The notes below the pieces were generated by a model. That model did no database searches. It was given only the letters and a program-made list of their open reading frames with translations, and had not been told where the DNA came from. DNA of 64,000 nt, taken from Gammaproteobacteria bacterium (GTDB taxonomy: Bacteria; Pseudomonadota; Gammaproteobacteria; Steroidobacterales; JABDKV01). A program made the position numbers and the translations under genes. Where the stretch lies: assembly GCA_013003425.1 (NCBI GenBank), contig JABDJB010000094.1, forward strand, positions 6,635 to 70,634. The letters are read 5' to 3'. This document shows, piece after piece, positions 49,095 through 53,804 of this stretch (within the stretch, counting starts at the first letter, position 1; the number at the start of each line of letters is the position of its first letter).

Positions 49095-50471
49095 ATGTTG
49101 GCGTTGTTACTGTTTCTCGCAGTTGTGCTTGTCCTCCTGGCCGGTTATCCCGTGGCATTCAGCCTGGCCGGCACGGCGCTGGCCTTTGCGGCCGTTGGCG
49201 CAATGAGTGGCTCTTTCGACCCGACGTTTCTCAGCGTGATGCCAAACCGGATTTACGGCAGCGTGATGACAAACGATATCCTGGTCGCGGTGCCGCTGTT
49301 TGTATTCATGGGAGTGATGCTCGAGCGCGCACGCATTGCCGAGAGTCTGCTCGATACGTTGGGGCTGCTGTTCGGCCGGGTGCGTGGCGGGCTCGGTGTC
49401 GGCGTGCTGCTGGTTGGCGTGCTGCTGGCCGCCAGCACCGGTATTGTTGGCGCGACAGTGGTAACTATGGGCCTTTTATCTCTGCCAACGATGCTCAGGC
49501 GTGGCTACGACGCCAGGGTGGCAACCGGCGTGATTTGTGCATCCGGCACCCTTGGCCAGATTATTCCGCCTTCCATCGTGCTGGTGCTGCTTGGCGACGT
49601 GCTGTCGTCCGCCTATCAGCAGGCGCAAATCGATCTTGGGGTGTTTTCGCCAAAAACAGTTTCTGTGGGCGATCTTTTTATCGGAGCGTTGCTGCCCGGG
49701 CTGATGCTGGTCGGTTTTTACGCCGCCTATATCCTGCTCACAGCCGCGCTCAGGCCACAGACAATGCCCGCAATTAGCCCGAAAGCCGGTGCGTTGACGG
49801 CTGGTCAGCTCGCCGTGCGAGTGGTCAAAGTGCTGTTGCCTCCGGTCGTGCTGATTATTGCGGTTCTCGGTTCCATCATCGGCGGGCTGGCGACGCCAAC
49901 AGAAGCGGCTGCAGTCGGCGCATTTGGTGCGCTGGTCATCGCGCTTGCCCGACGCGAGCTGGATATGGCGAGGCTGCGTGACGTAATGCGTACAACCACG
50001 CGTGTCAGCAGCATGGTCTTTCTGATTCTCATCGGTGCTTCGGTATTTTCCCTCGTGTTCCGGGGCTTTGGTGGCGACGAAACGGTGCATGCGTTACTCA
50101 CCGACTTGCCGGGCGGCACAGCCGGGGCGGTGATAGCCGTAATGCTGATGATGTTCGTGCTTGGTTTCGTGCTCGACTTTATCGAGATTACTTTTGTGGT
50201 TGTGCCGATTGTTGGCCCCGCATTGCTGGCGATGGGTCTCGACCCGGTGTGGCTCGGGGTGATGATTGCGATCAACCTGCAGACATCCTTCCTGACGCCG
50301 CCATTTGGTTTTGCTCTGTTCTATCTGCGTGGCGTGGCGCCGGCCGAGGTGCAGACCACCGATATTTATCGAGGGGTGATGCCCTTCGTCGCGATTCAGC
50401 TGGTCGCGCTGGCCATTCTGGCTGCATGGCCCCAGCTGGCGACCTGGTTACCCGGAGTCGTTTACGGCTGA
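49095..50471 (+). CDS. TRAP transporter large permease (DctM-like)
   Basis: GYPVAFSL, LVAVPLFVFMG, ASGTLGQIIPPS, TPTEAAAVG, NLQTSFLTPPFG. Confidence 0.95.
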   Translation: MLALLLFLAVVLVLLAGYPVAFSLAGTALAFAAVGAMSGSFDPTFLSVMPNRIYGSVMTNDILVAVPLFVFMGVMLERARIAESLLDTLGLLFGRVRGGLGVGVLLVGVLLAASTGIVGATVVTMGLLSLPTMLRRGYDARVATGVICASGTLGQIIPPSIVLVLLGDVLSSAYQQAQIDLGVFSPKTVSVGDLFIGALLPGLMLVGFYAAYILLTAALRPQTMPAISPKAGALTAGQLAVRVVKVLLPPVVLIIAVLGSIIGGLATPTEAAAVGAFGALVIALARRELDMARLRDVMRTTTRVSSMVFLILIGASVFSLVFRGFGGDETVHALLTDLPGGTAGAVIAVMLMMFVLGFVLDFIEITFVVVPIVGPALLAMGLDPVWLGVMIAINLQTSFLTPPFGFALFYLRGVAPAEVQTTDIYRGVMPFVAIQLVALAILAAWPQLATWLPGVVYG

Positions 50472-51682
50472 TTTTGTCTGGGCGGCAGGCTGAAATGCAG
50501 CACGACAAACGCAGCAAGCGCGGCAATCATTGACCCGACCAGAATGCCGAGCCGGTCGCCACTGAAGTAGTCACCACTGCCATGCTCGAATGCCAGTCCG
50601 GCGATAAACAGGCTCATCGTAAAGCCAATGCCGCAGGCAAACGAGGCGCCAAGCAGCTGCAGCCAGCTGACATTGTCAGGCAGTTTCGCCAGTCGCAGCG
50701 CGATGGCCAACCCTGCCATCAGCATGATTCCAACGGGCTTGCCGATTACCAGTCCGGTAATAACACCAAGCGTGACAGGGTGTGCCAGGTCGGCCAGCGA
50801 AAGTCCCGCCAGCGACAGGCCGGCGTTGGCGAAAGCAAAAATTGGCAGTATCGCGAAGGCAACGGTGCTGTGCAGGTCATCCTCCAGCTCACGCAACGGG
50901 GAGCGGCCCTGCGCATCGCGCATGGGAATACAAAACGCAATGAGCACACCAGCCAGCGTCGCGTGTACGCCAGACTTCAATACCGCGACCCATAGCACGA
51001 TTGCGACCAGCACATAGGCGGAAACCCGCGTCACGCCGGCCCGGTTCATGGTGATTGCCAAAATCAGCGCCACCGCGGCGGTCGCCAGTGCTGTCAGCGA
51101 TAGATCACCGGAATAAAATATAGCGATGATCACGATAGCGGCGAGGTCATCGAAAATCGCCAGCGTCAGCAGGAACACTTTGAGCGCAGTTGGAACCCGG
51201 CTGCCAAAAACCCCAAGCAAGGCCAGCGCAAAAGCGATGTCGGTTGCCACCGGTACCGCCCAGCCATCGAGAGCAACCGGGTCGCCCCAGTTGAGCCACG
51301 CGTAGATGGCGGCCGGCACGGCCATGCCCCCAAAGGCGCCCGCTGCCGGCAATACAATCTGAGATGGCGTCGACAATTCTCCTTCCATGATCTCGCGTTT
51401 GACCTCGAGTCCGATGAGAAAGAAGAAAATGGCCATCAGCCCATCGTTGATCCACAACAGCAGCGGCTTGTCGATCTCCAGAGCGCCAACCTGCACCGCG
51501 ATGGTTGTATCCAGTAAAGCGTTGTAAAGCGACGCGAATGGCGAGTTGGCGACGAGCATGGCAACGACTGCGGCCGCCAGCAGCAACAGTCCGGCGGCTG
51601 ACTCGAGCCGCAAAAATTCGAGTGCGGCGCTAACAACTTCCTGCGCCGGTTTGGTTATCTTTTCTATTGGTGTGTCAGCCAC
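50462..51682 (-). CDS. nhaA: Na+/H+ antiporter NhaA
   Basis: WINDGLMAIFFF..GLEVKRE, GWAVPVATDIAFAL, LAIFDDL, KSGVHATLAG, CGIGFTMSLFI. Confidence 0.96.
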   Translation of the reverse strand: MADTPIEKITKPAQEVVSAALEFLRLESAAGLLLLAAAVVAMLVANSPFASLYNALLDTTIAVQVGALEIDKPLLLWINDGLMAIFFFLIGLEVKREIMEGELSTPSQIVLPAAGAFGGMAVPAAIYAWLNWGDPVALDGWAVPVATDIAFALALLGVFGSRVPTALKVFLLTLAIFDDLAAIVIIAIFYSGDLSLTALATAAVALILAITMNRAGVTRVSAYVLVAIVLWVAVLKSGVHATLAGVLIAFCIPMRDAQGRSPLRELEDDLHSTVAFAILPIFAFANAGLSLAGLSLADLAHPVTLGVITGLVIGKPVGIMLMAGLAIALRLAKLPDNVSWLQLLGASFACGIGFTMSLFIAGLAFEHGSGDYFSGDRLGILVGSMIAALAAFVVLHFSLPPRQNQP

Positions 51683-52772
51683 TTAAGTAATACGCCTTTT
51701 CAGAAATATCGTGCCACGCCGAGACTTGTCGCTGAAAAGCGCGGTAGTGACGGTAGACGCGCTCGAACAGCTCATCACCGGCAGCGATTTCCCGCAGGAT
51801 TTCTTCGGACAGCTGGCGCAGCCGTGCCAGCACGTCGGGCGGAAACGGCCGTAGCTGCACGTTGTGCTCATTTTTCAGCGTCTCGAGCGCAATGTGATTG
51901 CGTGCGGTGTATTCGGCAAGCATGTTTTGTGCCGCGGCATCACACGCACGCATCACCATCGTCTGCAGTTCTGCCGGCAGTTCGTTGTAGGCATCGCGGT
52001 TGATGATGCACTCGAGCACGGTGTTTGGTTCGTGCCAGCCCGGGTAGTAATAGTATTTGCCAACCTGGTGCAGGCCGAAGGCCAGATCGTTGTACGGGCC
52101 AGTCCACTCGGTGGCGTCAATATTGCCGGTCTGCAGCGCAGTGAAAATTTCCGAGCCGGGCAGGCTCACCGGGGTGCCGCCCGCGCGTTTCAGTACCTCG
52201 CCGCCGAGACCCGGGATACGCATTTTCAGGCCGCGCAGGTCATCAACGCTGTTAATTTCCTTGTTGAACCAGCCCCCCATTTGCACGCCCGTGTGACCGG
52301 CAGGGGCCGGGATGATGTTGAATGGTTCGTAAACTTCACGCCACAGTTCAAGCGCGCCGCCGTGCAACAGCCAGGCCGTCAGCTCCTGGGCATTCATGCC
52401 GAACGGAACGGCAGAAAACAGCTGAGCGGCAGCGCTCTTGCCCTTCCAGTAATACGATGCGCTGTGACCGAGCTGTGCCGTGCCCTGGCTCACCGCATCG
52501 AAGGCCTCGAATGCCGGTACCAGCTCGCCAGCTGCGTATATTTTTACCTTGATGCGCCCGGCGCTCATTTGTTCGATTGCATTGGCGAGGTACACAGCGC
52601 CGGTACCCAGTCCGGGAAAGTTTGGCGGCCAGGTTGTGACCATCTTCCAGCTGAAGGTCTTTCCCGCAGCGCCGTCCATCGCGATGCCGGTTTCACACGG
52701 CTGCGTACACCCCGGCAACCCGGCGGCCACGGCACCTGCTCCCAGGCCAGTCAGAAAATCTCGACGTCGCAT
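51675..52772 (-). CDS. TRAP substrate-binding protein (DctP/TakP-like) with Tat signal
   Basis: MRRRDFL Tat motif, WKMVTTWP, LKMRIPGLGGEV, GNIDATEW.GPYND..FG, YYYPGWHEP; ATG 52772 with SD GAGG. Confidence 0.93.
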   Translation of the reverse strand: MRRRDFLTGLGAGAVAAGLPGCTQPCETGIAMDGAAGKTFSWKMVTTWPPNFPGLGTGAVYLANAIEQMSAGRIKVKIYAAGELVPAFEAFDAVSQGTAQLGHSASYYWKGKSAAAQLFSAVPFGMNAQELTAWLLHGGALELWREVYEPFNIIPAPAGHTGVQMGGWFNKEINSVDDLRGLKMRIPGLGGEVLKRAGGTPVSLPGSEIFTALQTGNIDATEWTGPYNDLAFGLHQVGKYYYYPGWHEPNTVLECIINRDAYNELPAELQTMVMRACDAAAQNMLAEYTARNHIALETLKNEHNVQLRPFPPDVLARLRQLSEEILREIAAGDELFERVYRHYRAFQRQVSAWHDISEKAYYLSG

Positions 52773-52829: not shown

Positions 52830-52859
52830 AAAAAACCCCGGCCCAATCGGGCCGGGGTT
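52830..52859 (-). terminator. Intrinsic terminator
   Basis: AACCCCGGCCC/GGGCCGGGGTT 11-bp stem, T6 on the minus strand. Confidence 0.8.
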
Positions 52860-52945
52860 GAAGTACGTCCTTGCAGGTGTGATCGAGTGTCCTGATGGGA
52901 TGGCTGGTGTGGCCATCCCATGTGCTCCCGTCCTTTTGGAGCACC
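52830..52945 (-). ncRNA. Candidate Csr/Rsm-type small RNA (~116 nt)
   Basis: Five GGA (three AGGAC-type, one in a hairpin loop), 3' terminator, -10-like TATCCT, upstream TGTAGG-N6-CCTACA palindrome. Confidence 0.55.
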
Positions 52946-53022
52946 ATTTAAGGATACACAGGCTGATGACCGCAGGATGTCGGCAGCCCGGCCCGTGGCC
53001 GTCAGCGAATTTCCGCCAGCAA

Positions 53023-53040
53023 TGTAGGCAAAATCCTACA
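53023..53040. promoter_or_regulatory. GacA/UvrY-box-like palindrome
   Basis: TGTAGG-CAAAAT-CCTACA, versus the Pseudomonas rsmXYZ UAS TGTAAG-N6-CTTACA. Confidence 0.55.
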
Positions 53041-53066
53041 GGGTCGGGTCGGGTTATGCTTCTGAG

Positions 53067-53513
53067 ATGATCGCGTTGCTACAGCGGGTGGGGCAGGCAG
53101 AGGTCCGGGTCGGTGATCGGACGGTTGCAGCCATCGGCACCGGGCTGCTCGTGCTGGCCGCAGTCGAGCGCGGTGACACGTCGCAGCAGGCCCGGCGCCT
53201 GGCCGAGCGGATCTGCGGGTACCGTGTTTTTCCCGACGGTACCGGCCGCATGAATCTCAGTGTGATCGAGCACGGTGGTGAGGTCCTGCTGGTGCCCCAG
53301 TTCACCCTGGCCGCCGATACCCGCAAGGGGATGCGCGCTTCCTTTGCCACTGCCGCAGAACCTGAAGTGGGCCAGGCCCTGTTTGCAGAACTCGCTGCGG
53401 CAGTTAACAGCCGTGCCGGCAAGGTCGCTCTGGGTGAATTCGGTGCCGATATGGCCGTTTCACTGGTAAATGAGGGACCGGTGACCTTCTGGTTGCACGC
53501 CCCGCCACCTTGA
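53067..53513 (+). CDS. dtd: D-aminoacyl-tRNA deacylase
   Basis: MIALLQRV..AEV, VPQFTL.ADT.KG.R.SF, SLVNEGPVT. Confidence 0.95.
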   Translation: MIALLQRVGQAEVRVGDRTVAAIGTGLLVLAAVERGDTSQQARRLAERICGYRVFPDGTGRMNLSVIEHGGEVLLVPQFTLAADTRKGMRASFATAAEPEVGQALFAELAAAVNSRAGKVALGEFGADMAVSLVNEGPVTFWLHAPPP

Positions 53514-53582
53514 TGCGCTTCACACAAGCGTCCCGGGGCCACTGGTATACTCGGTTTATCGAGGCATACGGCGAGGCTCGAA

Positions 53583-53804
53583 ATGGGTCTGGGTAACATA
53601 AGCATCTGGCAGCTGGCAATCGTGCTGCTGATCGTTGTGCTGATTTTTGGCACCAAGAAGCTGCGCGTGATGGGATCCGATCTTGGCGGCGCCCTGCGGG
53701 GCTTTCGCAAGGCGATGAATGAGGGCGAGTCCGAACAGCTCACCGACGATTCCGGGGCGTCCGATTCGGTACAGCAGTCGCGCGACCAGGTCGACTCTCG
53801 CTAG
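53583..53804 (+). CDS. tatA: Twin-arginine translocase subunit TatA
   Basis: [35 protein letters not shown]. Confidence 0.96.

Follow-up and report, generated by a model that had tools for sequence, protein, structure and literature searches.

A small-RNA gene between dtd and dctP

We analysed a 64,000-nucleotide stretch of a gammaproteobacterial metagenome-assembled genome (MAG) (contig JABDJB010000094.1, positions 6,635 to 70,634; hereafter the window) and describe here a short unit on its minus strand, which lies in the intergenic region between dtd and dctP. The host is an uncultured bacterium, and its MAG, which originates from beach-sand metagenomes, comprises 3.27 Mb at 60% G+C and is 95.5% complete. 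A sequence-only reading of this region had proposed a CsrA-titrating small RNA (sRNA) of the Gac/Rsm (Csr) type behind a variant GacA box. The palindrome, the -10-like TATCCT with its poor -35, the hairpins, CAGGAC, CAAGGACG and the terminator that it described were all recovered on the minus strand at the positions it had given. The features of the locus, and the two genes that flank it, are as follows.

53040-53023, read on the minus strand: palindromic upstream activating sequence (UAS) TGTAGGATTTTGCCTACA, of the form TGTAGG-N6-CCTACA, a G-variant of the GacA/UvrY box
53022-52957, minus strand: 66-nt spacer from the box to the -10, containing a conserved half-site-like CYKAC (here CTGAC)
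52956-52951, minus strand: putative -10, TATCCT, a weak match to the consensus, homologous in position to the CATAAT/CATACT of families f8, f13 and f24
52944-52828, minus strand: predicted sRNA gene of about 117 nt, its 5' end placed from the -10
52944-52922, minus strand: hairpin 1, a 7-bp stem (GUGCUCC/GGAGCAC) with the 9-nt loop AAAAGGACG, from the fold and compensatory changes
52931-52933, minus strand: GGA site 1, in the loop of hairpin 1 (unpaired probability 0.98)
52921-52895, minus strand: hairpin 2, a 10-bp stem (AUGGGAUGGC/GCCAUCCCAU) with one GGA buried in the stem, from the fold; absent in genome G003
52894-52889, minus strand: CAGGAC, GGA site 2 (unpaired probability 0.42)
52892-52868, minus strand: invariant 25-mer GGACACTCGATCACACCTGCAAGGA, identical across all members of the window's family
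52873-52866, minus strand: CAAGGACG, which fits CANGGANG, GGA site 3 (unpaired probability 0.66)
52859-52828, minus strand: Rho-independent terminator, with a stem-loop at 52859-52834 (11-bp stem, 9 G-C pairs, loop GAUU) and then U6 (T6 to 52830)
53067-53513, plus strand: dtd, D-aminoacyl-tRNA deacylase (TIGR00256, 163 bits)
51675-52772, minus strand: dctP, TRAP-type DctP solute-binding protein with a Tat signal (PF03480, 200 bits)

Conservation, folding and copy number together argue that the unit is a real and independent sRNA gene, conserved among relatives and so far unannotated. The 119-nt RNA has a folding energy of -56.3 kcal/mol, compared with a mean of -35.5 for shuffled sequences (z = -6.1), and none of 200 shuffles was as low. 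RNAalifold returned seven pairs with double changes, all of them within hairpins 1 and 2, and the compensatory changes among members of the window's family fall on four stem pairs in hairpin 1 and three in hairpin 2. Although the stem sequence changes, the site-1 GGA stays in the apical loop in all five genus-level members (the window's own, G001, G002, G003 and L153; genomes, contigs, loci and families carry our handles G, C, L and f where they have to be told apart), and every member of the genus retains three exposed GGA sites. Sites 2 and 3 lie 22 nt apart (GGA-N19-GGA), on either side of a module free of GGA, ACUCGAUCACACCU.

The locus is non-coding, since its relatives differ by indels whose lengths are no multiples of three, and the frame of its sole open reading frame (ORF) varies among species. 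This ORF, of 55 amino acids (52947-52780), overlaps the sRNA and was rejected as coding because neither its frame nor its start codon is kept, the frame in G001 being a different one. A 229-amino-acid ORF on the minus strand (53054-53743), considered as an upstream gene, proved spurious, having no family match and running antisense to dtd. A repeat or mobile element was likewise rejected, as neither hairpin 1, hairpin 2 nor the 25-mer has a second occurrence in the genome when up to five substitutions are allowed.

Using BLAST and a covariance model built on the 3' half of the sRNA (model R1), we found exactly one copy in the host genome, and likewise one in each of the other three species of the genus and in the sister genus. 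The sRNA is present in four genomes of the genus, in a single species of the sister genus and on one metagenome contig; a metagenome scan with a 21-mer yielded one new family member only. A search of the host genome for a paralogue or second sponge RNA, by GGA density upstream of 627 terminator-like sites, by model R1 and by a combined scan for box and terminator that permitted up to two box mismatches, returned none. The top GGA-dense site (C5:100675) was rejected as a second sponge, being the 3' end of a coding gene. No second locus combines the box, GGA motifs and a terminator, and the sRNA seems to be the sole output of its kind. The discrete, unannotated sRNA unit of the sequence-only reading was therefore upheld as conserved, structured and single-copy, and is best read as neither leader, ORF nor repeat.

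A palindromic box at a phased distance from the promoter

The palindrome TGTAGG-N6-CCTACA corresponds to the GacA box TGTAAG-N6-CTTACA with one change per half-site. The perfect form occurs twice in the 3.27-Mb genome, where we would expect about 0.15 occurrences by our own estimate from the base composition (60% G+C). In six genomes from two families (G001, G002, G004, G011, G030 and G046) there is one perfect palindrome per genome, each upstream of the homologous sRNA. Within the window's family (f1) the box is present upstream of the sRNA in all members, with CGTAGG as the variant in G003.

The second perfect box in the host genome (C32:12198-12215), which has the G+C-rich spacer CACCGC, is intergenic; a coiled-coil protein with a membrane anchor is encoded about 160 nt further downstream. 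We rejected it as a second sRNA promoter, since there is no RNA gene nearby and the perfect box is not retained in relatives. A second perfect box was seen in genome G062 (locus L139) as well, TGTAGGATATATCCTACA at C225:2814-2831, between divergent protein genes and with no RNA gene nearby; here the regulator may act directly on a protein gene.

Five members of f1 have 66 nt between the box and the -10 and the sixth, G004, has 65 nt, whereas the interval is 43-45 nt in f8, f13, f17, f24, Aquisalimonas lutea and a soil MAG (L074). The difference of 21-22 nt equals two turns of the DNA helix, which is the pattern expected of an activator held to one face of the helix. The putative -10 is located 7 nt ahead of the first hairpin in every homologue. 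Its hexamers are weak in f1 (TATCCT, GATTCT, GAAGCT) and better in the other families (CATAAT, CATACT). We found no recognisable -35 before any of these hexamers and no consensus sigma-70 promoter at the window locus, and a weak -10 without a -35 is as expected of an activator-dependent promoter. The near-uniqueness of the box in each genome, its place upstream of the sRNA and its fixed, phased spacing argue that TGTAGG-N6-CCTACA is a dedicated cis-element of the sRNA gene. The same observations lend support to the variant GacA box that had been proposed, and the suggested scan for further sites turned up just the one more in the genome (C32:12198), with no RNA gene attached.

GGA-rich relatives in sister lineages

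Beyond the window's own family, model R1 recovers homologues in at least four further families of its order in the Genome Taxonomy Database (GTDB). The homologue in f8 (genus g9) is about 150 nt long with 5-6 GGA, that in f13 has 6 GGA, that in G027 (f24; locus L159) is about 230 nt with 11 GGA, and that in the MAG SMAG_U8873 (L074) has 8 GGA. Many of these GGA sit in short hairpins, such as CGC-AGGA-CGCG and GCC-AGGAY-GGC. Common to f1, f8, f13, f24 and L074 are the 3' module ACUCRAUCRCC ... GCMAGGAYG and the terminator, together with the same box type. Genome G020 (f17) has the same box, the linkage to dtd and, just ahead of the terminator, the terminal hairpin GCC-AGGAU-GGC; the ACUCRAUC module is absent there. 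In Aquisalimonas lutea a dtd-adjacent, box-bearing RNA (L123) of about 170 nt carries 9 GGA.

Across these lineages (f8 genus g9, f13, f17, f24/G027, SMAG_U8873 and Aquisalimonas lutea) the box type is the same and the spacing the same or phased. The sister RNAs differ from that of the window in their length of 150-230 nt and their 5-11 GGA, and the window's spacer is the longer by the two helix turns noted above. In the window's family the GGA-rich middle is replaced by one hairpin, or by nothing (G003). Judged by the five features that Kulkarni et al. set out for CsrA-regulating sRNAs (PMC1488887), the sister-lineage RNAs have predicted architectures that are textbook sponges. We conclude from these comparisons that this order of Gammaproteobacteria has a wider, uncatalogued family of sRNAs, of which the window-family RNA is a reduced form. 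The earlier assignment to the CsrA-sponge class gains support from the GGA-rich, syntenic homologues. Two of the sister-lineage RNAs are clearly of the Csr/Rsm type and apparently uncatalogued. One is L123 (NZ_JAUFPK010000001.1, about 769.6-770.0 kb), whose host is a named species in culture; the other is L159 (G027:C74, about 60.7-61.0 kb), whose host has a low-G+C genome and belongs to the window's order. Neither has an Rfam match.

The synteny of the sRNA with dtd holds in five lineages (f1, f8, f13, f17 and Aquisalimonas). Among the matches listed in a scan of contigs with the Dtd profile there were 79 scorable dtd loci, and only that of Aquisalimonas clearly has an adjacent box and GGA-rich RNA, so the linkage appears to be restricted to certain lineages. 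The same scan brought to light the RNAs of Aquisalimonas and SMAG_U8873. A literature search found nothing on dtd linkage of such an sRNA.

The module between GGA sites 2 and 3, ACUCRAUCRCCU (52890-52873, minus strand), is conserved in at least four families of sponge-like RNAs (also in L159/G027, L074, L015 and L016). Of this module L074 shares AUCACCUCC and G027 shares GAUCACCU. It is similar to the 16S rRNA 3' end of the host genome itself (GAUCACCUCC; ..GGAUCACCUCCUUU), and could be a turnover element, a mimic of the anti-Shine-Dalgarno sequence or the site of a second binding partner.

Csr and Gac proteins of the host

The host genome encodes one csrA, at C9:32531-32686 (PF02599, 90.5 bits; NF002469, 117.6 bits with a cut-off of 73). 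The CsrA protein has 69 amino acids. A GacA/UvrY orthologue is encoded at C71:93622-94284; its best match is NF007018, with 244 bits versus 134 for the next family, and it is 46% identical to what we take to be the sequence of P. aeruginosa GacA. The surrounding genes follow the order gacA-(udg)-uvrC-pgsA, where the ORF between gacA and uvrC, named by eye from its sequence, is like a family-4 uracil-DNA glycosylase (C71:90436-94284).

The best BarA-like protein (C92:39107-41047; 362 bits to NF008318) is a soluble HisKA-HATPase-REC-Hpt protein of about 620 amino acids, without transmembrane or HAMP segments. Two HAMP-HK-REC hybrid kinases lack an Hpt domain (C32:33290-35031 and C46:62958-64352). 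A stand-alone Hpt of 107 amino acids is encoded at C31:19116-19340. In a survey of 21 families of the order, one genome each, at E <= 1e-50, the only convincing GacA/UvrY was that of G027 (f24); the helix of a second match, in G007, is NarL-like. Retention of the Gac module thus seems patchy in the order.

The GacA orthologues from f1, f8, f13 and f24, the lineages with TGTAGG boxes, have the recognition helix SPKT(V/I)STY(R/C)[S/T/A]R, mostly followed by IFQK. The corresponding helix of P. aeruginosa GacA and E. coli UvrY we take to be SPKTVN(T/S)YRYR(I/M)F(E/S)K. In Aquisalimonas, which has a box of the TGTAAG type, the helix is SPKTISTYRYRLYEK. On these alignments the recognition helix of GacA co-varies with the box type, YRYR becoming YR[S/T/A]R in the lineages with the G-variant. 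The changed tyrosine is aligned to what is presumably a base-contacting lysine position of NarL. Because all of the TGTAGG lineages belong to one order, this correlation is phylogenetically confounded.

Comparison with known sRNAs

Five criteria for sRNAs that regulate CsrA were given by Kulkarni et al. 2006 (PMC1488887), of which the window sRNA shows four outright and the motif density more weakly. It has an intergenic location, between dtd (53067, plus strand) and dctP (52772, minus strand); a conserved 18-bp upstream sequence of the UvrY/GacA type, here in the form of the variant box; GGA in loops or otherwise exposed, with the unpaired probabilities listed above; and a Rho-independent terminator whose 11-bp stem and U6 are accompanied by compensatory changes across homologues. 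As to the density, AGGA occurs three times in the 117-nt RNA compared with 0.30 expected, about a ten-fold enrichment, and ARGGAYG twice compared with 0.014 expected, about 150-fold; the absolute AGGA count is low compared with CsrB, RsmY and RsmZ and comparable to that of RsmX-1/2 (PMC7911923). Site 3, UGCAAGGA(C/U)GU, agrees at 9-10 of the last 11 positions with the consensus RUACARGGAUGU obtained by systematic evolution of ligands by exponential enrichment (SELEX) (PMC4347634).

The predicted logic is that of RsmY/RsmZ (RF00195, RF00166) and CsrB/CsrC (RF00018, RF00084), in which an RNA with GGA loops, activated by GacA/UvrY, titrates CsrA/RsmA. The window sRNA has three exposed sites, compared with 7-10 in RsmY/RsmZ and about 18-22 in CsrB. 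A close parallel is to RsmX and RsmX-2 of Pseudomonas, which at about 110-120 nt are of similar size and have an 18-bp palindromic UAS, a weak promoter, a 5' end at the foot of a hairpin, few ANGGA motifs with about three exposed in loops, and a terminator. The validated RsmX-1 and RsmX-2 of P. brassicacearum have 6 GGA, only 2-4 of them exposed, and RsmX-2, at 110 nt with 3 exposed, can suppress a gacA deletion (PMC7911923). A low number of GGA sites is thus compatible with titration, as RsmX-2 works with three exposed (PMC7911923). A four-motif 'CsrC' candidate of Shewanella is not regulated by UvrY (PMC3171408). Unlike RsmX, the window sRNA has TGTAGG-N6-CCTACA in place of TGTAAG-N6-CTTACA, shows no detectable sequence or covariance-model similarity, is apparently single-copy (Pseudomonas has 2-5 paralogues), is linked to dtd and carries a conserved non-GGA 3' module.

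The combination of few CsrA sites with a conserved stretch free of GGA is shared with McaS of E. coli and CbsR12 of Coxiella. McaS is known both to bind CsrA and to base-pair with mRNAs. CbsR12 has four predicted CsrA sites, and it both binds CsrA and pairs with mRNAs (bioRxiv 10.1101/679134). The window sRNA differs from these two in having no sequence relation to them, in its different promoter control and in that a duplex scan showed no target pairing for it. The Pseudomonas RNA RgsA resembles it in length (about 120 nt) and in its Gac control, which for the window sRNA is predicted. RgsA has one GGA and no palindromic UAS, is controlled indirectly via RpoS and does not titrate RsmA (PMC2375449), whereas the window sRNA has a UAS and three exposed GGA sites.

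Gene neighbourhood

Downstream of dtd, which is divergent from the sRNA gene, come tatA, tatB and tatC. With only 26 nt between the dtd start codon and the GacA-type box, binding of the regulator could also influence transcription of dtd-tat. On the other side, dctP starts 55 nt past the sRNA terminator in the window, on the same strand, and it follows the sRNA on the same strand with a gap of 55-115 nt in f1, f8 and f13. The gene order dtd-sRNA-dctP is thus preserved in three families. In G030 (f8) and Aquisalimonas the neighbour is instead a convergent, unrelated gene. In the window nhaA (50462-51682, minus strand) follows dctP, and there is no dctQ or dctM beside dctP.

Interpretation and alternative explanations

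The analysis establishes that the unit is conserved and structured, that the box is specific within the genome and phased in its spacing, and that csrA and gacA are present. We think it probable that the locus encodes a GacA-activated, CsrA-titrating RNA of about 117 nt of the Gac/Csr-Rsm type. It would represent a new sequence family within a well-known functional class, with a box that is a variant and with binding sites pared to a minimum. In the mechanism that we propose, a phosphorylated dimer of the GacA/UvrY orthologue would bind TGTAGG-N6-CCTACA, centred near -88, and would switch on the weak promoter that has the -10 TATCCT and no -35. The transcript would begin at the foot of hairpin 1, stop at the strong intrinsic terminator and present three accessible GGA sites, in the AAAAGGACG loop, CAGGAC and CAAGGACG. 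By homology and motif content, CsrA dimers would be captured at these sites and drawn off their mRNA targets. Transcription of the sRNA, its dependence on GacA and its titration of CsrA are what we infer from the sequences compared here.

Several observations weigh against this interpretation. The total enrichment of GGA is modest (5 triplets, 2 of them buried in stems, compared with 1.4 expected), and the exposed sites number only three. The most conserved stretch, ACUCGAUCACACCU, is free of GGA and is not explained by CsrA binding, which hints at an additional or different function. The GacA score of 244 bits is under the NCBIfam equivalog cut-off of 280, and we found no canonical GacS/BarA, no protein in the 95.5% complete MAG scoring above the NF008318 cut-off. 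In three families dctP lies downstream of the sRNA without an obvious promoter of its own. A search of RNA-seq runs returned no run containing the sRNA locus. Rfam at E <= 10 on 451 nt gave no Csr/Rsm family (RsmX, RsmY, PrrB_RsmZ, CsrB or CsrC), and a scan of the window at the gathering score gave no match. Low-score matches to Spot 42, anti-hemB and DsrA were dismissed as terminator-driven noise far under the threshold. The GGA-rich relatives are likewise without an Rfam match, and such misses are usual for Csr/Rsm RNAs outside the lineages used for the models. The lack of a covariance-model match places the window RNA in the functional class only, and not in those sequence families. Among the checks that accompanied the sequence-only reading, the search of Rfam for RsmY, RsmZ, CsrB and CsrC came back empty, and the search for csrA and gacA/gacS succeeded in part, with csrA and a GacA/UvrY orthologue present and a canonical GacS not found. 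Its worry over the small number of GGA loops is real in that just three sites are exposed, but is largely answered by RsmX-1 and RsmX-2 with their 2-4 (PMC7911923).

The GGA-free stretch and the low GGA count are also the starting point for a different explanation, in which the RNA, expressed from the same palindrome-dependent promoter, acts by base-pairing or has a dual function, pairing with mRNAs through the single-stranded ACACUCGAUCACACCUGC while its GGA are incidental or secondary. It is the most conserved part of the RNA that lacks GGA, and this part is retained across families while the GGA hairpins turn over; the likeness of the module to the 16S 3' end would in principle allow pairing with Shine-Dalgarno regions. 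There are precedents both for GacA-controlled sRNAs that are not sponges, such as RgsA (PMC2375449), and for sRNAs that bind CsrA and pair with mRNAs, such as CbsR12 (bioRxiv 10.1101/679134). However, the relatives that share the module are rich in GGA like classical sponges, and the three exposed sites of the window sRNA are conserved throughout the genus. When the seed was run in RNAduplex on 4508 translation-initiation regions, crudely defined, the best energy was -35.2 kcal/mol versus -34.1 to -39.4 for 12 shuffles, which as a weak test gives pairing no support. We regard this explanation as rather unlikely. A further step down in probability is the suggestion that the RNA is real but stands outside the Gac cascade, the palindrome being the site of another regulator of the LuxR/NarL type. 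Each half-site does depart from the canonical GacA box at one position, the host encodes further full-length NarL/FixJ-type proteins (for example C101:1826-2455, 34% identical to GacA), the kinase search found no canonical GacS, and most families of the order are without a strong GacA match. What makes this improbable to us is that the site has the geometry and position of a GacA box, being palindromic over 18 bp, with an A/T-rich N6, and preceding a GGA-bearing sRNA that ends in a terminator. Related RNAs, moreover, have intermediate boxes ahead of them at the same 44-nt spacing, TGTAAGGATTTTCCTACA in L074 and TGTAAGAATTTTCTGACA in Aquisalimonas. The box-bearing lineages that have a GacA match all show an orthologue with the lineage-specific change in the helix.

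The position of dctP allows one more reading, in which the unit acts in cis, as a leader or attenuator of this gene, and not in trans. It would fit the 55-115 nt separating dctP from the terminator on the same strand in f1, f8 and f13, and the fact that no sigma-70-like promoter was detected in that gap. The terminator is nonetheless very strong (11 bp, 9 G-C, U6), the fold shows no sign of an alternative pairing that would act as antiterminator, and the conserved partner of the sRNA is dtd and not dctP, the homologous or analogous RNA being followed by a convergent, unrelated gene in G030 and Aquisalimonas. We therefore consider a leader very improbable.

The GacA-activated, CsrA-titrating RNA that we favour could also be part of a more specific and more speculative picture, in which the output module of the Gac system has been naturally re-specified, with a changed GacA helix and a G-box, a direct regulon of nearly a single sRNA, and a pared-down sponge with a second activity. 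The helix change from YRYRIFEK to YR[S/T/A]RIFQK, in which the second tyrosine is lost, may have co-evolved with the G-for-A replacement in both half-sites. Nearly the whole direct GacA regulon seems to be one sRNA gene beside dtd-tatABC. The sponge may consist of one loop site and an invariant GGA-N19-GGA clamp around the 16S-like module, and through its second activity it may control how fast it is turned over or pair with Shine-Dalgarno regions. As a whole we hold this picture to be possible but doubtful.

Significance

These findings do not overturn the current understanding of the Gac/Csr system. With the sRNA unannotated and invisible to Rfam, CsrA and GacA look like orphans in these sediment and sand Gammaproteobacteria, and placing the sRNA would complete the cascade and provide a seed for a covariance model with which it could be annotated in several families. 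The family would also illustrate how a sponge RNA may shrink, from about 11 binding sites to 3, while its non-GGA 3' module is retained. Finally, a box that is unique in each genome, with a matching change in the recognition helix of GacA, would offer a natural case in which the co-evolution of a transcription factor with its binding site can be tested.

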